This document shows, one piece after another, positions 1,998 through 12,555 of a stretch of 12,555 nucleotides of DNA. How positions within the stretch are numbered: position 1 is the stretch's first letter; every line of letters begins with the position of its first letter. The notes beneath the pieces were generated by a model. That model searched no databases. It was given only the letters and a program-made list of their open reading frames with translations, and was not told the DNA's origin. The translations under genes and the position numbers were made by a program. Source of the DNA: a virus (Duplodnaviria; Heunggongvirae; Uroviricota; Caudoviricetes; Crassvirales); IMG/VR virus record IMGVR_UViG_3300012956_000013. One strand, 5' to 3'.

Positions 1998-2237
1998 CTA
2001 ATCGGAAAGTAGCTCAGAATCAATATCTTCAATCAATTTCTCTATCTCAGGAAGGTCTTCGACCTCAAGTTTTCCCGGATGTAATCTCTGGGAAAATGGG
2101 TCATCTACGAAAGAACCTAAATCATCTGCTATGCAAGATTGATAGAATTCATCTACATCTTTCTCATCTAGCTGAAAGAAATAATCGTAGGTTGATACAT
2201 AAATAACCTTTCCGGTTGGTAATGAAATATTTGGCAT
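1998..2237 (-). CDS. Small acidic hypothetical phage protein (79 aa)
   Basis: ATG overlaps the upstream TAA (TAATG) and the ORF ends at TAG. The N-terminal LPTGKVIYVS followed by a later PFS motif resembles small conserved proteins I recall from crAss-like phages. Composition is 20 D/E versus 5 K/R. Confidence 0.85.
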   Translation of the reverse strand: MPNISLPTGKVIYVSTYDYFFQLDEKDVDEFYQSCIADDLGSFVDDPFSQRLHPGKLEVEDLPEIEKLIEDIDSELLSD

Positions 2238-5200
2238 TATAATCCTCTTTTATCTGTTACTTTAACGCCCCAATCGTTCCCTAATTCAGAATCAAAAGTT
2301 GGCATATAATTAATAATTTCTTTTAAGACAGGTAATATTTTAAAAAAGTACTTCATAGGTTTTGCCCTCTCTCTTATTTCTTCTCCTCTCTCTTCAAATC
2401 CTAATCCTTCCATCCCTAATCCAAATGTTTCCCTTCCAAGATTTAATGTAAGATTTTTAAAGTCATTGACATACATCATCAGTGGAAATGGATTCTTTGC
2501 AATATCAACAATAGAGGTTGGGTTAAAGAAGAAACCTATCTCGTCTGACATCTTATCTATCTGTCTTCTTATTAGGGCTTTTGCTGATTTTTCCTCTGCA
2601 TCATCATCGTCATCACCTTTCATTAGTCCCGCTAATATAAATAATGTAAGGGCTCCAAACCATCTAACTTCTTCCAATGAATTTTCATATCCTATCATAA
2701 ATGCCTCTACAAATTCATTCTCTGATAAAAATTCTTCTTTTCTACCAAGTTTTTCAGCTACTTCTTTTTTTCTTTGGTATACTTCTATTGCTCTCTTAAT
2801 TAAATCTTCTCTTCCAAAATTTTTCAAAAGTTTTCCTGTAAGAAAGGGAATAGGGACTAATTTAGCCATAGAAGATAGTGTGTTAGCTGTAAAGCCTCTA
2901 TAAAGCATTCTAAATCTTCCATATACATAAGAGTTATGAGATTGAGAGTAGTGCATTTCTGCCCATCTTACATCTCCCATTCTAGGTATCCAGTTTTTAA
3001 ATGTACCAGCCAGTCTTCCCATAATCTGCATTCTATATGTTTGAATATCAAACTCATCAGCAGAACCAGTAGCATCTTTAGATATAGTTTGTACTTGTGC
3101 ACGAAAATTAATAACCTGCTGAGATTGGCGTTCTATTCCCGGAAGAGAGATAATAGTTTCCTCTTTGCCATTTATTTTCTCTTTTTTAAATTCTGCTATC
3201 TTCGTTATGGCATACTTTTCTTTCAGTTCTTTAAGTCTATTATCAAACTTTATATCTAGTTCTTTTCTTTCTTCTGAAGATTTCTGCCAATAATCCTCAG
3301 GTATAACTTCTGTTTTTGCTAAATCTCTTAAGTTAGTTATGTTTCCATCTATAATACCTGTATTCTCTATAAATGCAAAGAATATATTTAACTGAACTAC
3401 TTCGTCACCCTTTCTTTGTAAAGCCATTAGCCAATCCTGTGAGAGAATTCTGGAAGCTTGTCCTACAGATAATTGCTGAGACTTAAAGTTCTCTCTATTG
3501 TTAAGTAACGGAAGAAAATAGTCAACTAATGCTGCCTGTTTCTTCATTTCGTCTGATTGATAAAAAGCAACCGATGTCATTTTTGTCCAAGCAGTCATTA
3601 AATCTTCCTTCGAGAATTTAGAAGAATGAAGTTTATCTGCAGAGAAAGATGAACCAAATAAGTTACTCATTGCAGAAGATATATTAAGACCTAATGTCTT
3701 AAGTGTATTCATATTATTCAACCACAATGCAAACTTACTTATAGATATCCCACCTTTGTCATCATCAGTTATCTCAAATTTATACTTGTCATTAATTGGT
3801 AGTTTGTTCCATGCCTTTTTAAGTGAAAATTTTATAGTATAATCACTATCCATTTGGAGACTTTCTCCCAGTACATGATATCTAAAATATTTATCAAATA
3901 AATCTGCATTTAATCCTCTTACATCAGATTCAACTGGTCTATCTCCTAAGAATTTTACATTTCCGTACTTATCTGTCTCGTAATTTTTCTTTACATTTTT
4001 TTCAAAATACCTCAGTCCTTTGAATATATCATCTGTTTTTTGTAGGTATTTCTCCTTAGCAATTTCTTTTGACATTAATCCATATATAGTGAATATATCA
4101 AATGACATATTTCTCTTGCTAATCACTTTTTGTGCAAATAACTTATCCTGCTCTTTACTTTCCTCTCTAAAGTTTTTTACAAGTTCCCATTTTTTATCTT
4201 CTGGGGTTATATTGAAATTTGGAACAATTTCAGAGGCTACTTCTCTTCTTATATGATATAACTCATCTACATTATCTGTATATGCTATAAATCTTTTTTC
4301 CTCTTTTTTTCCAGTTTCAGGGTCTATTTTTCCTTGGAAATTTAGCTGGTAATCATTTACAGATATTTTTCTTTTCCAGTTTCTATAAGTTTGAAGAGCA
4401 AGATTTGACACCTTATTTAAGGTATTCGTATCTTTAACTGAAAAAATATCTGATGCACCTTTGAGTACATTAGGTACAAACGTATACATTTGGTATTCTT
4501 GGATAGCTCCTACATCTACTAGTTCTTTGTTCTTTTTTACAAAGAAGTTGTATATCTCCGTTAGAATAGGAGATTCTTTAATTGTTTTAAATTCTTCTGA
4601 TTCCCATAGTTCCTCCTTAAGATTTCTAGACCAAACGTACTTATTAAATGGGTGAAATGCAGTTTTTGGATGCTTTAAGATATTATATTCTTTCTCAAAC
4701 TTTGCTCTTTTTAATTTTTTAATTCTATTGTTTTCTGCAGCATCGTCAGATACTTGACTATTATCCCATACTTTAACATTTTCTTTCAGTTCTTTATCGT
4801 ACCACTCTTTCCATTTATCAATATCATAATTTACCTTTACAAATTCCAGAATCTTCTTTGAATCACCACTATCTTGAACTTCTTTTCTTTTCTCATAGAA
4901 TTCCTTATTTATTTTGGAATGAAGTTTTCCGGTTTCTCTATTTACAAGAAAGTCTATTGCTTTTTGATAAGATACTCCCTTTTCTTTTGCAAAAGACTCA
5001 AATTTGTATTTAAGACTTTGTAGATTCTTTAGTTCGTTATCTGTTTCAATGTCAATCTTACCATAAGCATTCTTTACCAACTCATACATTAACCGTATAG
5101 ACGCAATATCGTGGTCACCCATTGCTCTAAGATGAACAGATAACCCCCTAACTACTTTTTCGGGAGATGGTAAATTATATACTCCATTATTTCTTGCAGA

Positions 5201-8182
5201 AATGTCTAATAATTTGACCAATTGACCATCAAGAATTAACATTCGGTTTGATAGCTTATTAAAAATTTCATTTAATTTACCAATATATTTAGATTCAACC
5301 GTTTTATCTGATGTGATTAGGTCTCTAATTTCCGAAATAGCTTTAAACACACCTATATAAATATTAATATCACCAACCATTGCGTTAATTACATCAATAT
5401 CTTCTGACTTATTTACCTCAATTTCCTCACTTAATTTTTTAACTCTTGAAAATAAATCATTAACATATGAAATTACGTATCTTAAATCCTTACCTAAATG
5501 TAAATCAAATATAGCATCATCTATCTCAGAAAGAATAAGTCTATCATTTAATTTACCCTCCTTCAACATTTTGATAAACGTATTTCGTACACCTTTCAAC
5601 TTAATCTTAAGATTATCTCTTATCTCGCTACCGGATTTCTCCTGCTGAGAAATATAAGGTCTAAGAGAGGTCTTCTCTTCTTTTATCGGGTCTACATTTC
5701 CAGCTATTATTTTAGTTAAAACATCCTTTTTGTAAAGCCTACGAATAGGAATTGCTCTTAATTTATTAAATTCCTTTACATTATAATCTTTAGCCAGAAC
5801 ATCTCGATATTGAGATAATTGAATCTCCCACTGATTCTTTTTATAGTCTCTCTCTTCTGATTCATCTTGAACAGTCTTCCAGTCTAAAATACTTAATTTT
5901 CCAGAGGGTTCTATAGCAATAAAGTCAACAGTTCCAATTACACTCTTTTTAATATCTGTATTATCTGAGTATACAATTTGTTCTGATAAAAATCTTGTAC
6001 CAACAGGAAAAGTAGCAAACATTTGCCTCATATATACTTTTACTTGTCTTGCTAGTGCCTGTTCTATAGGAGTTGGATATAGTATATCAGTTAGAGGTCC
6101 TTCTGAATCTCTAAGCAAACCTGTTTCTCCGTCTACCATTGAATTAAATACGTCCTCAAACACAGAGTGTACATATTGACCATCCTTTGCTAATGAGTCA
6201 TAATACTTACGCTTTTCCGGGTCAGATGGTCTATTTCTGAATAGTTTTTCTTTATATTCATTACTTTTATCTGTAACCCTAGGACCTTCCCATAATTTTC
6301 CATCTTTATAGTACTTATTATCTATTTTGGTAAATCCTAAGCTAGCAGCTTTATCTTTAATAGATAGAAATGTAGTTTTTGTTGCAGAAAATTCTGCGTC
6401 TCTTTCATCTATACTCTTTGACGATTTAGAAAAGAATAAACCGTCAGATTCTGAATCATAATTAGTACTATCTAAATCAGAGAATACGCCAAATGCTTCG
6501 TTGTTTTCATTAAGTCTATCTAAAGCCTCCTTAAATGGATTTTTGTAATTAGTAAATGTCTTTCTTATCCAATCTTTTATTGCAGACCACCAAGTATTTA
6601 CTTTCTTTACTTTATCTAGAGATTCAATCTTATTTTCAGTATCAGATATTAAGTACTCTACAAGGAGCTTAGCAATAGCTTCCTTTTTAATTTTACTATA
6701 ATCTAATTTCCCGTCTTTTTGATAATTTGGGTCAGTTGCATATGAAGAGTTTACTAAATCTCTATATAGCTGATAATCAATTACTTCTTTCTCAAGTTTT
6801 CTGAAAAGGTTAGTATCTGCTTGCTCTATCAACTCCACAAGTATATGCATAGCTTCTTCTGGTAGAGTTACATCTTCCTTACCCTCCACAATTTGCATAA
6901 CACCGTTAATCATATCTACATATGCATCATCTTCGATTTCTTCACCATTATGAAAAAGTTTTTTAACTATTTCAATATTTGTAAATCCTATATTTTTTAG
7001 GAAATTCAATACTTTTTGCTTTGTTATTTCTCCAGCTTTTGTAGATTGTAGATTAGATACATCTTTGCTTTCAAAGATTCTAGGAAATGAACTACTAAAG
7101 TCACCAATCTGTACATAAATTGCACCTTCTGTTTCTCTAGTTCTAAGCCAAGTCCATCCATTCTTTTGAATCATTTCTTCCAAGATACGTTTCTTAGTAT
7201 AGTCCTTTTCCTTATCTGGAATATTTGTTCTGGATAACGAATTCCATACTGTAGCTTTAGGAATATAATACCAAGCTCGTTTCTTTCCACCAGCTCCGAA
7301 CTTTTGCACCTTCTTAGATATATATCCTGCATTTTGTAGTTTCTTGAAGATTACTTGTTGTTCAGGTGTAAGGTTATCCTTTGGAGCTTTGGAGAGATAG
7401 ATGTCTCCTTTCTTTTCAGAGTATTTTCCTTTATTAAATAAAGATTTAATATTACTATAAATCTTATTTTCTGGTTGAAAAATTGCGTAAGATATACTAC
7501 CTTTATCCTCTAATTTATTTTCATAATAGTAGCCATCTGCATTAAGTACCTTTTGTAAGGTTGTCTCACCTTTAAGTAGAGATATAGCATCTTCTCTTGT
7601 TATAATACCTGCATCATAGAATGAGATATAAAGATTTCTTCTTTCGTCTTCATTCTCAATCTGTTCGTTACTTTCGTTTCCAATATAATATAATTCCTCA
7701 TACTCCTCCTCTGATATATTCTGAAGACGACTTGATGATAGGTAATCTACTCCTTTTACTAAATTTTTAGCAAATAAGAATACAGGTAGTAATTTATATC
7801 CCTCTTCTTCTAAATCTCTTAGTGCATCTTCTTCACTTGTTCCAAAGTAATCAAGACCTCCGTCATACTTTCTTTCTATTGCTGCCTTCTTCGTTCCAAA
7901 GTGAAATCCTCCTACTACAGAATATTTCTCATCAAATTCATTAAAATCTATATCTGTACCATGCCACAAAAGAAGAGGTTCACCATCTTCTGTAGTTACT
8001 ACATTTGGTGACTTTTCAGTAGTCCAATCCCCTGACCTTGATATAAACGAAGGAGATAGCAGTTGCTCATATAACATGTCTGCCTCTTGGTCAGTATTTA
8101 CCTCTTTTCTTATATCATTCCAAGTCTTAGAAGTAACTTCTTTCCCAGTTCTTGGTGATTTTATTATTCTACATGATGCCAT
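2237..8182 (-). CDS. Giant virion cargo/ejection-type polyvalent protein (1981 aa): ART-like, EExxH peptidase-like, PD-(D/E)XK nuclease, helical and membrane-inserting C-terminal region
   Basis: 5.9-kb open frame. The start is moved from the track's TTG (8188) to the in-frame ATG at 8182, which overlaps the upstream TAA and has AAGGAG 7 nt upstream. Motifs: DGEPLLLWHGT/GFHFGT, LPEEAMH, GTVDF..LDWKT..QLSQY and WFGALTLFILAGLM-KG-DDDDD. Confidence 0.93.
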   Translation of the reverse strand: MASCRIIKSPRTGKEVTSKTWNDIRKEVNTDQEADMLYEQLLSPSFISRSGDWTTEKSPNVVTTEDGEPLLLWHGTDIDFNEFDEKYSVVGGFHFGTKKAAIERKYDGGLDYFGTSEEDALRDLEEEGYKLLPVFLFAKNLVKGVDYLSSSRLQNISEEEYEELYYIGNESNEQIENEDERRNLYISFYDAGIITREDAISLLKGETTLQKVLNADGYYYENKLEDKGSISYAIFQPENKIYSNIKSLFNKGKYSEKKGDIYLSKAPKDNLTPEQQVIFKKLQNAGYISKKVQKFGAGGKKRAWYYIPKATVWNSLSRTNIPDKEKDYTKKRILEEMIQKNGWTWLRTRETEGAIYVQIGDFSSSFPRIFESKDVSNLQSTKAGEITKQKVLNFLKNIGFTNIEIVKKLFHNGEEIEDDAYVDMINGVMQIVEGKEDVTLPEEAMHILVELIEQADTNLFRKLEKEVIDYQLYRDLVNSSYATDPNYQKDGKLDYSKIKKEAIAKLLVEYLISDTENKIESLDKVKKVNTWWSAIKDWIRKTFTNYKNPFKEALDRLNENNEAFGVFSDLDSTNYDSESDGLFFSKSSKSIDERDAEFSATKTTFLSIKDKAASLGFTKIDNKYYKDGKLWEGPRVTDKSNEYKEKLFRNRPSDPEKRKYYDSLAKDGQYVHSVFEDVFNSMVDGETGLLRDSEGPLTDILYPTPIEQALARQVKVYMRQMFATFPVGTRFLSEQIVYSDNTDIKKSVIGTVDFIAIEPSGKLSILDWKTVQDESEERDYKKNQWEIQLSQYRDVLAKDYNVKEFNKLRAIPIRRLYKKDVLTKIIAGNVDPIKEEKTSLRPYISQQEKSGSEIRDNLKIKLKGVRNTFIKMLKEGKLNDRLILSEIDDAIFDLHLGKDLRYVISYVNDLFSRVKKLSEEIEVNKSEDIDVINAMVGDINIYIGVFKAISEIRDLITSDKTVESKYIGKLNEIFNKLSNRMLILDGQLVKLLDISARNNGVYNLPSPEKVVRGLSVHLRAMGDHDIASIRLMYELVKNAYGKIDIETDNELKNLQSLKYKFESFAKEKGVSYQKAIDFLVNRETGKLHSKINKEFYEKRKEVQDSGDSKKILEFVKVNYDIDKWKEWYDKELKENVKVWDNSQVSDDAAENNRIKKLKRAKFEKEYNILKHPKTAFHPFNKYVWSRNLKEELWESEEFKTIKESPILTEIYNFFVKKNKELVDVGAIQEYQMYTFVPNVLKGASDIFSVKDTNTLNKVSNLALQTYRNWKRKISVNDYQLNFQGKIDPETGKKEEKRFIAYTDNVDELYHIRREVASEIVPNFNITPEDKKWELVKNFREESKEQDKLFAQKVISKRNMSFDIFTIYGLMSKEIAKEKYLQKTDDIFKGLRYFEKNVKKNYETDKYGNVKFLGDRPVESDVRGLNADLFDKYFRYHVLGESLQMDSDYTIKFSLKKAWNKLPINDKYKFEITDDDKGGISISKFALWLNNMNTLKTLGLNISSAMSNLFGSSFSADKLHSSKFSKEDLMTAWTKMTSVAFYQSDEMKKQAALVDYFLPLLNNRENFKSQQLSVGQASRILSQDWLMALQRKGDEVVQLNIFFAFIENTGIIDGNITNLRDLAKTEVIPEDYWQKSSEERKELDIKFDNRLKELKEKYAITKIAEFKKEKINGKEETIISLPGIERQSQQVINFRAQVQTISKDATGSADEFDIQTYRMQIMGRLAGTFKNWIPRMGDVRWAEMHYSQSHNSYVYGRFRMLYRGFTANTLSSMAKLVPIPFLTGKLLKNFGREDLIKRAIEVYQRKKEVAEKLGRKEEFLSENEFVEAFMIGYENSLEEVRWFGALTLFILAGLMKGDDDDDAEEKSAKALIRRQIDKMSDEIGFFFNPTSIVDIAKNPFPLMMYVNDFKNLTLNLGRETFGLGMEGLGFEERGEEIRERAKPMKYFFKILPVLKEIINYMPTFDSELGNDWGVKVTDKRGL
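2621..2662 (-). other. Hydrophobic, possibly membrane-inserting helix followed by a poly-Asp tract
   Basis: WFGALTLFILAGLM is followed by KGDDDDD. The uncharged core is only 14 aa, which is short for a full transmembrane span. Confidence 0.55.
5740..6330 (-). other. PD-(D/E)XK (RecB/lambda-exonuclease-like) nuclease domain
   Basis: The ordered motifs are GQYVHSVFE (H at 6169..6167), SEQIV, GTVDF (D at 5926..5924), LDWKT (5887..5873) and QLSQY. No Fe-S cysteines are present. Confidence 0.85.
6560..7030 (-). other. Zincin-like fold with EExxH in place of HExxH
   Basis: LPEEAMH (6865..6845), a distal KKEAIAKLL, and a trailing WWSAIKDWI helix parallel the LWQKFINAIFNLF helix that follows the intact zincin in the upstream protein. 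Confidence 0.6.
7450..8050 (-). other. ART-like domain 3 (ART-PolyVal type)
   Basis: Motifs in order: GDW, DGEPLLLWHGT..FNEF, GFHFGTKKAA, PVFL, and ADGYYYENKLEDKGSISYAIFQP. Confidence 0.8.
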
Positions 8183-11100
8183 TAGCAATCTCCTTTTTTA
8201 AATTGTAAATTATCTAATAATTTTTGACTGGATAACATACCATTGTTCTTTTCTGTCCAATTTTTAAACCCTTCTATATCTTGTTTACTACCTAATACGT
8301 GGATTTGTTCTGGTTCTTTTACTGCAATCCATTTTATTGCGGGAGTATTACTGATTGATTCTACACCTCTTTCTTTGGCACTTAATTGATTTATAATTAT
8401 TGAATCATTGTTAGCAAGATTATACTGTTTTAGATTACCATATTTACTATTCTCTAAACTATTACTTTCTATTGGATTATTACTATCAACTATAGCTGCA
8501 ATTTCATTTTTACTGTTCCCTCCTTCATCTAAATTGATACCAAATACAGTTTTATCTTTTGATGTTTTACTGAAATATATAGGTACTTCATAACCTAATT
8601 CTTTACTAAATCTCTTTTTAAATTTATCAAAAGTACTATCAGTTTGATGATAAACAATATCCTTTACTTTCGATTCATAATTATACTTACCACTTGAAGG
8701 ATTTTTAACAATACCTAAAGATACTCTTGCTATGTAATCTGTATAAGCATTTAACGCATCTTGTTTTTGTTCTAAAGGTGTTTGAATATTTTCATTAGGT
8801 ATAAATCTATTATAGTCCCAAATATCTTTGTATCTTGCAAAATCTAATTTAGCTTTAAAAACATCTTTCCAATTAGCAAGTTGAATTACAGTTCCTTCTT
8901 TAGATTTATAATTAAAGGGGTTATTTAGATTTTTATCAGAATAATTCTCATAACTAAAAAAATCTATAACTTTACCTTCTACACCAGTAACTATTTCTTC
9001 AGATTGATTATTACCTTCTTGTTTTTGGAGTCTGTATGTTCCTACAACATTCCCTTTTGAGTCTATGACATCATAAGAATTAATAATAATTTTACCGTTA
9101 AAATTATCTGCTTTATAATTTGATATAGAGTATCCTTCAGGAGTAATCAAATAACTGTCTGTTATGTATCCATCTCCATAAATATCTCTAACCTTAACAG
9201 CATTAGGGTAAGACTTTAAGAATTTTTCTTCTGTTTCTTTTCTACTAAAAGGGCTAACCCAATCTATATCGTGCAAAGGATTTTCATCAGGTCTTAATAT
9301 AACCCCTTGTTCTGATAATGCTGTACTTCCTGTAAGAATAAACCCTAGTTTAGAAAGCTTGTAAATGATACTTGCTCCAAATTTATCTTTTTTTAAAGCC
9401 TCTTCTATATTTACTTGTTGAGTAGGCTTACCAAAAGCTCCGGGTTTATATAAAGAAGCTGTGATTAATTTTTTATTTTGTTGTAAAACATTGTTACTAA
9501 TTATTCCAATGTTAGTGTTTATCGTATCTATAGGAACAGACATAAACAACTCAAGAAATTTATTAACGAGTTCTTTAATTTTGTCAATTAAAGATTGGTT
9601 ATAATTCCCTTTTATTTTATTCTGTAAATCTTGACTAACAAGTTCGCCAATTAATTTAAAATATTGAGACTTATCTAAATTTTTATATTTATCTGTTTTA
9701 CTAAGTTCTGTAATAATATCTGTTACTAAGGGATTATATTGCATCATATAAGCAATAAATTCTCCAGCTATAATCGGTAAATCTTTTTTATCTTTTATAT
9801 ATGCTATTTTAGATAATAAATCGGCAACCCCTATTTCATCTATTTCTAACTTATCTTTTATTTCATTAATATCTTTAACAGTTATTCCAAATTGATACAA
9901 ATAAGTTTCAAATATCTTAGAAGCGTCTTTTCCTGCTTTTTTTATTAATTCTGAGTTAATTTCAACAGGAGTATATTTTAAATTCTGAGATTGATTATAA
10001 TATTCAATTTCTTTACTTGTAACATCCTCATAACTTTTATTAAAAATTTTCTTAAAAACATTTGGGTTAGATGCTACTGCAAATTTATCCATCTCTTCCC
10101 CTTTAAAATTATAATTAAAAGAAGAAGTAGAGGCTGCATATCCGCTTCTTACCAGTTTATCCGCATAGTCTTTAGGAACAAAAGAAATAAAATCTAAACC
10201 ATTTTTCACAATATTAGGGATAGCTTCAGCAAGAAGTTCTTTACTTGAAGGAGAACTATTTATCCTTGTTATAAATGTTGCTGTATTAATATCATAATTT
10301 CCAAATATATAGGTGTCTTTATGCTTATATACCTGAAAAGTTTTTAAAAGAGATTCAAAAACATCATAAGAAATAGCTTTTCCTTCTCTTTTTCTATTTA
10401 TTAATGCTACATAATTATTATAAATAGTTCTTAGTTTCTCTTTTGTTATGTCTGGTTCTAATTCAAATATTGTAGAAGCAATTGTATTTTGCTTATTTTC
10501 AACCCCGGTAGCTTCGTAATAAACATTCTGTAATTCTTCACTACTTTCAAAAGCATTTTTAGCACCTTCAATAAACTCTTTATTGCTAAGTCTTTCTTGT
10601 AGTTCATCAAACTTTTTAACTTGTTCTTGTTGATTACCTTGAAGTACAGGATTAGTATTAGGTTTATTTAGTGATTGTTGAAATTGTTGGAAAGAGTTGT
10701 TTTCTTGAGATTTTTGAGATATAAAGTTTGCTAATCTAGTATTATCATTAATATTACTTACATTATAAAATTTAAAATTATTAATCTGTATTATACTATT
10801 TAATTTATCAAAAGTAGATATTTTATATGTTTCAGTTTTATATTTAGAGGTTTTATTAAATAAATTAAATATTGCATTTATAAATTTTTGCCATAAAGAT
10901 AAACTTGTTTCTTTTTCTTCTTCTATGCTTTCAAGTAACTGCTTAAATAAAGGATTTGAAAAAGCTTCTGATAAAAATTCATGTTCGTCTTTTAATCCAT
11001 ATATAGAATCTTTATTGTCTTTTTGATACTTTTTACCTGTTTTATTTTTTACTTCTTTTATCAACTCTTTTATCTCATTTTTAAATGAAATATCATAATT

Positions 11101-12555
11101 AATTGCTAGATGTGTAACACCATGAATTAATTCGTGTGCTAATAATTGAAAAGCTCCCTTATCTATGCGAAGATTTTCTTCATATATATAAATTGAATTG
11201 GTATTAGGTTGATACCAAGCAGCAACTCCTTCTTCTGAAAACTCTTTATTAGAAAATACAACTACCTTAATATTTTTAGCATTTTTAACTGCATCTTTGA
11301 TTAAAGGATTGTCTATAAGTTCTATTGCATATTTTAATATATCAGTAGAATCATCGTTATAAAATTCTTTAACAATTACAGGTTTTATGCCTTTTTCACT
11401 AGTTTCTCTCTTTTCTTTAATTATCTGCTTTACTTTAGCATCTAATACATTTTGTCTATTTTCTTCTGATATTTGTGATATTTTAGAAGTTAATTTATAA
11501 AAACCTTTGACAAATCTTTTTGGAAACTTGAAAGTTTTACCATCAGCAGTTTCAAAAACAAAAGTTTCAGATTTACTATTATTTAATTCTTTTTTAACTT
11601 GGTCAAATACAGATGAAGTAAACCCAAATGAAAATATTTTATCGAAATTTTCTTTAACGGAATTTTCTATAACTTCATTTTGTTTTTCTAGAATTTCATA
11701 AAAATTAGGATAAACTTTACTTTCTCCTATAAACATAATATGTTCAGGGTACACACCAGTTTGATTTAATACTTCAGATAAAGAAGGACTTCTATCTCTT
11801 GAAAATCCCCCAAAAAAAGCAAAATCTTTTTTACTTGTATCATATTGTACATTATCAAAAGTAATTTCATCTATACTTTTAACATTTGCTCCTGATGCTC
11901 TATTAAACAACATTAAAGCTAAATCATCATCTTTTAATGATGAGCTATTAAAATCTCCTTGTTTATTATCAGAAAATATTTGAATATTAGAATTTAATTT
12001 TTGATTATTTTTATTAAACTTATCAACCCAACTTTTAAACCTTTTTATATCTTGTTTACTACCTAATATATGAATTTGTTCTGGTTCAAATACCACGTAT
12101 TCACTCGCTTCAGGTTCATCTAATATATAAGCGTCATTAGTTGTAGGTTTATTCTTTATTTTACCAAATTCATTATAATCAAAATCTTCTGTATTTTTAA
12201 ATATTTTAGGATTAATTGTATTAATTAATACAGGTATATTTTCACCACCTTTTTTATTATAAGGTTTATTTATATCAACTCTTCTATATTGAGTTGCATA
12301 ATTAAAATCTTTTGTAAAATAAATACCTTTACCATAATTAAATGTACTATCGGTAAATTCTTGTATATCATTAGCTGTACCATGATAAACAATATCTTTT
12401 ACTTTAGATTCTGGAAAAATAGTATCAAGATATTGAGAGTATAGTTGTTGAGCTTGTTGTTTATAGTCTATGTTAAACTTCAAACTTTGTTCATCAGCGG
12501 TAGCTCTATTTACAACTCCTTCTTTTATTAAAGAATTCCATAATCTCCTTGCATC
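8182..12555 (-). CDS. Giant polyvalent virion cargo protein, 5'-truncated (at least 1457 aa)
   Basis: The frame stays open upstream of the track's TTG (12483) to the window edge, adding DARRLWNSLIKEGVVNRATADEQS, so the true start lies outside the window. It contains two ART-like modules, an HELIH zincin and a nucleotidyltransferase motif set, and ends KKGDC-TAA. Confidence 0.93.
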   Translation of the reverse strand, partial: DARRLWNSLIKEGVVNRATADEQSLKFNIDYKQQAQQLYSQYLDTIFPESKVKDIVYHGTANDIQEFTDSTFNYGKGIYFTKDFNYATQYRRVDINKPYNKKGGENIPVLINTINPKIFKNTEDFDYNEFGKIKNKPTTNDAYILDEPEASEYVVFEPEQIHILGSKQDIKRFKSWVDKFNKNNQKLNSNIQIFSDNKQGDFNSSSLKDDDLALMLFNRASGANVKSIDEITFDNVQYDTSKKDFAFFGGFSRDRSPSLSEVLNQTGVYPEHIMFIGESKVYPNFYEILEKQNEVIENSVKENFDKIFSFGFTSSVFDQVKKELNNSKSETFVFETADGKTFKFPKRFVKGFYKLTSKISQISEENRQNVLDAKVKQIIKEKRETSEKGIKPVIVKEFYNDDSTDILKYAIELIDNPLIKDAVKNAKNIKVVVFSNKEFSEEGVAAWYQPNTNSIYIYEENLRIDKGAFQLLAHELIHGVTHLAINYDISFKNEIKELIKEVKNKTGKKYQKDNKDSIYGLKDEHEFLSEAFSNPLFKQLLESIEEEKETSLSLWQKFINAIFNLFNKTSKYKTETYKISTFDKLNSIIQINNFKFYNVSNINDNTRLANFISQKSQENNSFQQFQQSLNKPNTNPVLQGNQQEQVKKFDELQERLSNKEFIEGAKNAFESSEELQNVYYEATGVENKQNTIASTIFELEPDITKEKLRTIYNNYVALINRKREGKAISYDVFESLLKTFQVYKHKDTYIFGNYDINTATFITRINSSPSSKELLAEAIPNIVKNGLDFISFVPKDYADKLVRSGYAASTSSFNYNFKGEEMDKFAVASNPNVFKKIFNKSYEDVTSKEIEYYNQSQNLKYTPVEINSELIKKAGKDASKIFETYLYQFGITVKDINEIKDKLEIDEIGVADLLSKIAYIKDKKDLPIIAGEFIAYMMQYNPLVTDIITELSKTDKYKNLDKSQYFKLIGELVSQDLQNKIKGNYNQSLIDKIKELVNKFLELFMSVPIDTINTNIGIISNNVLQQNKKLITASLYKPGAFGKPTQQVNIEEALKKDKFGASIIYKLSKLGFILTGSTALSEQGVILRPDENPLHDIDWVSPFSRKETEEKFLKSYPNAVKVRDIYGDGYITDSYLITPEGYSISNYKADNFNGKIIINSYDVIDSKGNVVGTYRLQKQEGNNQSEEIVTGVEGKVIDFFSYENYSDKNLNNPFNYKSKEGTVIQLANWKDVFKAKLDFARYKDIWDYNRFIPNENIQTPLEQKQDALNAYTDYIARVSLGIVKNPSSGKYNYESKVKDIVYHQTDSTFDKFKKRFSKELGYEVPIYFSKTSKDKTVFGINLDEGGNSKNEIAAIVDSNNPIESNSLENSKYGNLKQYNLANNDSIIINQLSAKERGVESISNTPAIKWIAVKEPEQIHVLGSKQDIEGFKNWTEKNNGMLSSQKLLDNLQFKKGDC
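8190..8195 (-). promoter_or_regulatory. Shine-Dalgarno-like AAGGAG upstream of the 1981-aa gene
   Basis: The minus strand reads AAGGAG-ATTGCTA-ATG (7-nt spacer). It also encodes KGD of the upstream protein, so it may be coincidental. Confidence 0.4.
8275..8316. repeat. Dispersed direct repeat A, copy 2 (partner 12046..12087)
   Basis: tatatcttgtttactacctaataCGtgGatttgttctggttc versus tatatcttgtttactacctaataTAtgAatttgttctggttc, 39/42 identical; encodes EPEQIH(I/V)LGSKQDI. Confidence 0.9.
8647..8676. repeat. Dispersed direct repeat B, copy 2 (partner 12382..12411)
   Basis: atgataaacaatatcCtttactttCgattc versus atgataaacaatatcTtttactttAgattc, 28/30 identical; encodes ESKVKDIVYH. Confidence 0.9.
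8810..9370 (-). other. Pol-beta superfamily nucleotidyltransferase domain, AbiEii/MenT-like motif set
   Basis: Motifs in order: FILTGSTAL (G-S at 9330..9325), R..HDIDW (9273..9259), strand KVIDFF, and C-terminal KAKLDFARYKDIWD (8856..8815). Confidence 0.75.
10850..11300 (-). other. Zincin metallopeptidase domain (polyvalent-protein MPTase type)
   Basis: Motifs in order: AAWYQPNTNSIYI, AHELIHGVT (HELIH at 11136..11122), and distal YGLKDEHEFLSEAFSNPLF. Confidence 0.88.
12046..12087. repeat. Dispersed direct repeat A, copy 1
   Basis: 39/42 identical to 8275..8316. Confidence 0.9.
12382..12411. repeat. Dispersed direct repeat B, copy 1
   Basis: 28/30 identical to 8647..8676. Confidence 0.9.

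Follow-up and report, generated by a model that had tools for sequence, protein, structure and literature searches.

We analyzed a 12,555-nt stretch of DNA from a Crassvirales phage (IMG/VR record IMGVR_UViG_3300012956_000013), hereafter called the window, in which all long reading frames are on the minus strand, as are all genes, domains, and motifs described below. The subject of this analysis is a nucleotidyltransferase domain in open reading frame (ORF) A (P0001; 8182-12555), which encodes the C-terminal 1457 amino acids of a giant multidomain protein; the 5′ end of ORF A is open, and its start lies beyond the window. The domain occupies positions 8788-9423 (ORF A residues about 1045-1256), as delimited by an AlphaFold2 model. 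A first-pass annotation, which was made from the letters alone, had placed an AbiEii/MenT-like nucleotidyltransferase at 8810-9370 (residues 1063-1249). The region was right, although the folded domain is slightly wider.

The four motifs claimed by that annotation are all present in the claimed order. Motif I (hG[GS]) is LTGSTAL at 9316-9336, which contains G1076 and S1077 and lies within ILTGSTAL (residues 1073-1080). Motif II (9259-9294) consists of R1088...H1095-D1096-I-D1098, a predicted metal-binding DxD and an upstream Arg; R1088 is encoded at 9292-9294 and HDIDW (residues 1095-1099) at 9259-9273. This motif had been written as R..DID, and its residues are indeed found, but the spacing is really R-x6-H-D-I-D, with the Arg seven residues before the first Asp. 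Motifs III and IV lie together at 8815-8850 as K1236-L-x-F-A-R1241-Y-K1243-D1244-I-W-D1247, providing the Lys (K1236, 8848-8850), the Arg, and the "+DxxD" pentad, with RYKDIWD (residues 1241-1247) encoded at 8815-8835. To this motif list we added D1198 (8962-8964), which is located in VIDFF on model strand 156-162 and is the likely third catalytic carboxylate.

Conservation of these positions was analyzed in 132 full-length domain segments, taken from the best 150 of 263 database representatives, and in a 34-sequence domain-only alignment from viral contigs (A2). In the 132 segments, which are as little as about 28% identical to the query, G1076, H1095, D1096, D1098, D1198, K1236, R1241, K1243, D1244, and D1247 are 100% conserved, and S1077 and R1088 are 95-98% conserved. 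The same catalytic positions are conserved in A2; across both alignments, the Ser reaches up to 100% and the Arg 98-100%. Non-conservation of DID and KDxxD had been named as a possible refuting point, and both are invariant in the 132 and the 34 sequences. The invariance of catalytic positions at identities down to about 28% excludes chance and is a strong argument for a working active site. Thus, judged from its motifs and its predicted structure, the domain is apparently a catalytically intact nucleotidyltransferase of the Pol-beta superfamily. Its isoelectric point (pI) is 5.4, and the family median is 5.7.

Homologues were collected by a full HMMER search with the 221-residue segment P0002 against 1.84 billion cluster representatives, which returned 263 proteins at E <= 1e-3 and 167 at E <= 1e-10. 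Among the best 150 of the 263, almost all are giant proteins (median 2066 residues, maximum 6332), and the domain is found anywhere along them, from the first to the last tenth. A total of 35 loci were located on IMG/VR contigs of 14-166 kb. By contrast, a search of 185,579 species genomes gave one match (CAZBMJ010000002.1, 138,768 bp, from a bin named "uncultured Myxococcales"; L051), probably phage DNA that was placed in a bacterial bin. No stand-alone domain was found in these searches; matches of near-domain length were contig-end fragments or a TAG-interrupted frame. Among GenBank phages, neither the domain nor the window gave a tblastn or megablast match (50,697 phage records for tblastn). 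These results indicated that the domain family occurs almost only in phages and inside giant proteins. As a separate observation, in a 166-kb viral contig (L047:46-5635), every in-frame stop in the nucleotidyltransferase frame over more than 5.6 kb is TAG, with no TAA or TGA, which suggests that this phage recodes TAG. In another locus (L034:6001-6618), two in-frame TGA codons fall at both conserved Trp columns (..NW.. and ..DIWD..), suggesting that TGA is read as Trp there.

The nucleotidyltransferase moves as part of a three-part cassette

The first-pass annotation had treated the domain by itself. Comparison with relatives added that it belongs to a cassette at 8782-10581 (ORF A residues 659-1258), defined as the part in common with the relative P0004. 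BLASTP of ORF A against P0004 (4070 residues) aligned residues 659-1258 with 3410-4035 at 68% identity over 626 columns, and the rest of ORF A gave no BLASTP match to P0004 outside these residues. Because the match is confined to the cassette, the cassette must have moved as a block between different surroundings. The first part is a GNAT-like acetyltransferase fold (9988-10482, residues about 692-856), modelled with a predicted local distance difference test (pLDDT) of 82-93. It is followed by a helical linker (9424-9978, residues about 860-1044), whose helices were modelled at low confidence, and then by the nucleotidyltransferase. These three parts were seen in a second AlphaFold model, covering residues 685-1260 (overall pLDDT 74), as a well-folded alpha/beta domain, an ill-defined helical stretch, and the nucleotidyltransferase. 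Foldseek with residues ~692-856 returned dozens of GNAT acetyltransferases (probability 1.0, E 4e-4 to 3e-3), and no Pfam or NCBIfam model matched this part.

The GNAT-like domain, about 190 residues upstream of the nucleotidyltransferase, travels with it. Among the 150 best representatives, segments of ORF A residues 600-1045 are directly upstream of the nucleotidyltransferase in 45-60, and the helical linker in 60. The putative ART-like ends of ORF A are next to it in just 1 of the 150. We thus showed that a cassette of three parts, ending in the nucleotidyltransferase, moves as a unit among different positions in giant proteins of the crAss RNA-polymerase block.

Fold and family assignment

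The AlphaFold2 model of the domain was built on a 31-sequence alignment and gave a pLDDT of 89.4 and a predicted template modelling score (pTM) of 0.85. Foldseek against the PDB ranked MenT1 first (8an5, 8an4, and 8rr5; probability 1.0, E 3e-3), followed by JHP933, TM1012, and TglT/MenT3. A VIA search, which is independent of Foldseek, returned LnuA (Z 9.8), MenT1 (9.7), TM1012 (9.3), and Megavirus poly(A) polymerase (9.3), and at lower ranks ANT(2'') (9.0), TglT/MenT3 (8.9), JHP933 (8.1), and MenT4 (6.6). When the top 1000 Foldseek chains were re-aligned, MenT1 had Z 10.2 with a root-mean-square deviation of 3.5 over 143 residues, followed by TM1012, LnuA, and Mimivirus poly(A) polymerase (9.5 each), MenT3 (9.0), and JHP933 (8.2). 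Each of the 13 entries scoring Z 7-10.2 is a nucleotidyltransferase; a clear step below the compact nucleotidyltransferases come DNA polymerases beta and lambda, aligned over the core at Z 5.6-6.0. In BFVD, a set of viral structures, nothing matched clearly, and the few small phage proteins that turned up had TM scores of about 0.45. The claim of a Pol-beta fold is thus borne out by a confident model and by nucleotidyltransferase neighbours in both searches: as modelled, the domain is a compact Pol-beta-superfamily nucleotidyltransferase with a C-terminal helical pair. A beta-rich insert of about 60 residues separates the DxD strand from the D1198-bearing strand.

Next, we considered the assignment to AbiEii/MenT. 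The Pol-beta core and the C-terminal helical pair are shared by the domain with MenT1 (Rv0078A), MenT3/TglT (Rv1045), and MenT4 of Mycobacterium tuberculosis, AbiEii of Lactococcus and Streptococcus, and Helicobacter pylori JHP933, and motifs I-IV of AbiEii/MenT come in the same order as in the phage domain. The DUF1814 motifs of Dy et al. (2014) are hG[GS], an Arg-containing DhD, a Lys (with Arg), and "+DxxD", each of which is needed for toxicity (PMC3985639). All four are found in the phage domain at different spacing: 18 residues separate GS from DxD, compared with 15 in AbiEii, and the gap from K to KDxxD is 6 residues, compared with about 16-19. Aligned to the AbiEii profile, the stretch between motifs III and IV is shorter by about 8-10 residues.

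A 132-sequence domain profile was compared by hhalign, run without secondary-structure scoring, with three reference profiles. The AbiEii reference comprised 31 PF08843 genes from Myxococcota genomes, and the MNT reference comprised PF01909 genes. LnuA-family and ANT(2'') references were taken from plasmid records via short probes, the Myxococcota genomes having yielded no PF10706. AbiEii scored 25.7 (P 0.0059, 172 columns), compared with about 10.5 +/- 2 for column shuffles (maximum 19.7, 0 of 54 as high) and 15.2 for the reversed profile. The LnuA family scored 18.3 (P 0.051, 129 columns), where 3 of 25 shuffles (13.7 +/- 2.6) were as high or higher, and MNT scored 16.9 (P 0.036) over 63 columns, where 1 of 25 shuffles (11.0 +/- 2.5) was as high. 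For scale, AbiEii against LnuA gave 22.0. In the AbiEii alignment, motifs I-IV are in register, pairing LTGS with fKGGt, the Arg with a family-specific Arg, HDID with eDlDl, AKL with AEKL, and R.KDIWDY with sr.RDxyDl. The first-pass annotation had proposed a check against AbiEii, MenT3, and MNT; MenT1 came first in Foldseek, and AbiEii scored above LnuA and MNT in hhalign.

Several results weigh against this assignment. Scans with Pfam, NCBIfam, PADLOC, and PHROG models left the domain unmatched, both alone and within the whole of ORF A, and in absolute terms the similarity to the AbiEii profile is low (HH probability 6%). At E <= 10, PF08843 (AbiEii) matched neither segment P0002 nor a single one of 34 family members; against the whole of Pfam at the same threshold, these members gave only scattered chance matches and no nucleotidyltransferase family. 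PF08843 is also absent among language-model look-alikes, which instead carry PF10706 (ten of them), PF19244 (Poly_A_pol_cat, at rank 2), DUF6036, DUF2204, and the viral DUF7277. The ~60-residue beta-rich insert before the third carboxylate is absent from MenT proteins. Finally, the fold ranking is a tie of MenT1 with LnuA, ANT(2''), TM1012, and giant-virus poly(A) polymerases, all of which lie within ~1-2 Z of one another, with TM1012, LnuA, and Mimivirus poly(A) polymerase less than 1 Z from MenT1. Sequence searches of the PDB with the single domain sequence found nothing relevant, and those with a profile contaminated by flanks (A1) gave helical noise only. The clean A2 profile gave two matches, both sub-threshold and both to nucleotidyltransferases: JHP933 at E 0.36 and TM1012 at E 0.4, the latter pairing TGS..QG..HDID.

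The PF10706 (Aminoglyc_resit) enzymes LnuA, ANT(2'')-Ia, and TM1012 have the same compact fold (Z 9.0-9.8). TM1012 contains TGS..QG..HDID as the phage domain does, and the LnuA family likewise ends in a [KR]..D..D helix. However, PF10706 gave no match to P0002 or the 34 members, the LnuA-family profile score of the phage domain lies within shuffles, and these enzymes are small, stand-alone, cellular or plasmid-borne proteins that act on antibiotics. AbiEii/MenT genes also differ in their setting, as each is a stand-alone toxin gene in cells with an AbiEi/MenA antitoxin, whereas the phage domain is always embedded in giant phage proteins and has no antitoxin partner. The first-pass statement that no antitoxin is evident in the window agrees with a Pfam scan, in which no antitoxin-type family was found among the window ORFs; no PF08843 gene was found in the relatives G001 or G002 either. 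Taken together, the motifs, the top structure, and the best of three profiles speak for the AbiEii/MenT identity, and the unmatched PF08843 and the fold tie speak against it. Because the structure ties with LnuA, ANT(2''), TM1012, and poly(A) polymerases, strict AbiEii/MenT membership is not established. We read the domain as AbiEii/MenT-like by motif logic and nearest profile, and as a separate family rather than a member of PF08843.

Gene context and cargo status of ORF A

ORF A is followed by ORF B (2237-8188, 1983 residues), which overlaps it by a few bases. ORF B is homologous to the giant gene that closes the crAss "transcription block": it aligns collinearly with gp_22608 of the Crassvirales phage cr108_1 (tblastn E 6e-20, blastp E 1e-10), which ends that block ahead of the convergent replication module. 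A close relative of 114 kb and 96% completeness (G001), whose portal is of crAss type (E 2e-34) and whose capsid match is weak, has a layout like that of the window: a 4078-residue frame, the counterpart of ORF A by synteny, is followed by a 1953-residue gene. This frame and P0004 are each collinear with cr108_1 gp_22606 plus gp_22607. On the cassette-bearing polypeptides P0004 and P0012, DFDVD is found at residues 2512 and 2503, respectively. DFDVD is given as the crAss virion RNA polymerase motif in one report (PMC7886860) and in a preprint (bioRxiv 10.1101/2020.03.07.982082). The pattern D[FY]DxD occurs in 24 of the 77 representatives of at least 2000 residues. Sequence searches of the PDB with P0004, P0012, and ORF B gave no polymerase match, and P0004 gave a weak sigma-H match (E 0.003). 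In cr108_1, the end of gp_22606 and the start of gp_22607 align on either side of the P0004 DFDVD at residue 2512 (L015:11762-12053), and the two genes are separated by 290 nt that carry no annotation. The polymerase motif region of cr108_1 may thus be interrupted or mis-annotated.

Crassvirales cargo proteins (crAss001 gp47, gp49, and gp50; phi14:2 gp66; cr108_1 gp_22606-22608) are encoded in the same gene block and order, with homology to ORF B and to the giant protein of the relatives. The three RNA-polymerase-associated block proteins of crAss001 (gp47, gp49, and gp50) were found in virions by mass spectrometry, with ejection in a partly unfolded state suggested for them (PMC10172136). By analogy, we infer that ORF A is packaged in the virion and ejected into the host. 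The first-pass description of the domain as embedded in a phage cargo protein is thus supported by homology to the transcription block and by synteny, with delivery drawn from crAss001 proteomics. Two facts limit this reading. ORF A is cut off by the window edge before the part where a DFDxD polymerase motif would lie, the polymerase fusion being seen only in relatives, and packaging and ejection rest on homology to the crAss001 proteins; for this window, both the fusion and the packaging are predictions. Four reports on crAss block proteins (PMC10172136, PMC10136315, PMC7886860, and PMC12386605) contain no mention of a nucleotidyltransferase, GNAT, or ART module.

ORF A also resembles the polyvalent proteins of Iyer et al. 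(2017; PMC5512222), which are giant polypeptides that string together unrelated effector-type domains and are predicted to be delivered with DNA. A polyvalent-type mix is found here, with a GNAT-like fold, a nucleotidyltransferase fold, and an HExxH motif in ORF A, and PD-(D/E)XK and a sub-threshold ART-PolyVal in ORF B. In that study, Pol-beta nucleotidyltransferases were present solely in the polyvalent proteins that conjugative elements carry and were of the minimal NTox45/MNT-like type (PMC5512222), whereas the domain in ORF A is encoded by a phage and belongs with the larger, AbiEii/MenT-like kind.

The other features of the window were as follows. In ORF A, the zincin-type HExxH motif HELIHG (11119-11136) lies upstream of the cassette, in a region (residues 444-548) that matches PHROG phrog_37402 (E 9e-8). 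In ORF B, the Pfam PD-(D/E)XK match covers residues 668-821 (E 2e-6, above the cut-off) and ART-PolyVal covers residues 67-239 (E 4.5e-5, below it). The window also holds a 79-residue ORF and, at 2-1876, a collagen-repeat tail fibre (Pfam Collagen, E 1e-63; PHROG tail fibre families), and its G+C content drops from 46% to 25% along its length. ORF A and ORF B contain one cysteine each in 1457 and 1983 residues. Two pairs of direct DNA repeats flank the putative ART-like modules at the ends of ORF A: 8248-8316/12019-12087 (69 nt, 86% identity) and 8619-8676/12354-12411 (58 nt, 74% identity). The sequence cores between the repeats are dissimilar to each other.

Possible targets of the putatively injected domain

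We propose, as a tentative reading with a real but less than even likelihood, that the domain is the intact, MenT/AbiEii-nearest Pol-beta nucleotidyltransferase part of an injected cassette and adds a nucleotide to a host target, most likely an RNA 3′ end. Superfamily chemistry places two metal ions on three carboxylates, and the nucleoside triphosphate (NTP) is held by the GS loop and the Lys/Arg/KDxxD helices. In the proposed mechanism, the ORF A protein would be made late and packed into the particle. The cargo would then be pushed into the next host cell before the DNA or along with it, in the manner of the RNA-polymerase-associated proteins of crAss001. Owing to this late synthesis and packaging, the toxin-type enzyme would need no antitoxin. 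D1096, D1098, and D1198 would hold two Mg ions; G1076/S1077, K1236, R1241, and K1243-D1244-x-x-D1247 would hold the NTP; and a nucleotide would be added to a hydroxyl group of the host target. An RNA 3′ end, such as the tRNA acceptor stem modified by MenT1, MenT3, and MenT4, ranks as the likeliest target because the nearest relatives by motif and profile are MenT toxins. Targets of this class may also be acted on by the neighbouring GNAT-like domain. The activities suggested in the first-pass annotation, tRNA modification or repair and protein NMPylation, are candidate functions.

Two considerations count against RNA as the target: the domain is acidic (pI 5.4), which is unexpected for a lone RNA binder, and a general block of translation would hurt the phage too. 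Since the acidic pI is joined by the structural tie and by the polymerase fusion in relatives, readings with a protein, a transcript, or a small molecule as the target all stay alive.

The first of these, which we consider doubtful, has the domain acting after injection on a protein of the host, such as a defence or translation factor, by AMPylation or another form of NMPylation. Such activity has been proposed for the minimal nucleotidyltransferases of polyvalent proteins and for MNT antitoxins, and Iyer et al. (2017) grouped polyvalent Pol-beta nucleotidyltransferases with protein-modifying ARTs, kinases, and GNATs (PMC5512222). The domain itself shares one polypeptide with a GNAT-like fold and putative ART-like modules, and its acidic pI suits a protein target. 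In addition, according to one report, MenT toxins phosphorylate themselves, so that their active site accepts a protein hydroxyl (PMC11375011). However, the MNT profile covers just the 63-column core and is barely above its shuffles (16.9 compared with 11.0 +/- 2.5), and the nearest solved relatives with a known substrate act on RNA or small molecules.

Alternatively, the domain could be a partner of the virion RNA polymerase, acting beside the injected polymerase as a poly(A)-polymerase-like terminal transferase that tails or otherwise marks the RNA ends of host mRNAs or of transcripts made early by the phage. P0004 and P0012 carry the cassette and DFDVD on one polypeptide. The Mimivirus and Megavirus poly(A) polymerases align over the whole model (Z 9.5 and 9.3), and the rank-2 Atlas language-model look-alike carries PF19244. 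Nevertheless, we regard this as unlikely. The cassette is found anywhere along its host proteins, just 24 of the 77 representatives of at least 2000 residues have D[FY]DxD, and the domain is absent from most GenBank crAss-like phages, as judged from the lack of a tblastn match among the 50,697 phage records. The cassette thus behaves as an accessory module and not as a core transcription factor.

Similarly unlikely is a small-molecule nucleotidylyltransferase of the LnuA, ANT(2''), or TM1012 kind, which would inactivate an antiphage small molecule or alter a nucleotide signal early in infection. Its GNAT-like partner would then parallel the pairing of AAC with ANT. The structural scores for LnuA (Z 9.5-9.8), ANT(2'') (9.0), and TM1012 (9.3-9.5), the PF10706 of the ten Atlas look-alikes, the sub-threshold JHP933 and TM1012 matches as the only ones of the family profile in the PDB, and the acidic pI are all consistent with such an enzyme. 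However, the LnuA-family profile is not above shuffles, with 3 of 25 as high, PF10706 matches 0 of the 34 members, and a few injected enzyme molecules are poorly suited to clearing a diffusible compound. Finally, an inactive relic that contributes nothing but structure or packing to the cargo protein has no direct support and is hardly credible, given that every catalytic position is invariant in 132 sequences diverging to about 28% identity.

Returning to nucleotide addition at an RNA 3′ end as the favored reading, a broader scheme may be considered for the whole cassette. GNAT toxins such as TacT and AtaT also act on the tRNA acceptor end. Phages of the crAss-like type might inject, along with their RNA polymerase, a GNAT-like and MenT-like cassette that reuses both toxin chemistries of the tRNA acceptor end, acetylation as by TacT/AtaT and nucleotide addition as by MenT. 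Within the first minutes of infection, such a cassette would shut down translation in the host or counter a tRNA-based defence, and it would be one of several interchangeable payloads carried by the cargo proteins. We put this forward as a speculative and, on balance, improbable extension.

Crassvirales are among the most abundant phages of gut and aquatic samples. Their giant virion-packed proteins are annotated merely as "RNA polymerase-associated". This analysis defined a family of about 260 sequence clusters that is named by no public domain library, and no published description of the cassette was found in the literature searched. As judged from conserved motifs and models, these giant proteins contain a toxin-type nucleotidyltransferase that is conserved and apparently active, and an acetyltransferase-like domain is its partner. 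This gives a concrete idea of how the phage may act on the cell before any phage gene is expressed, and it would mean that enzymes of the AbiEii/MenT type, known from host defence and from toxin-antitoxin modules, are also used in this conflict by the phage.

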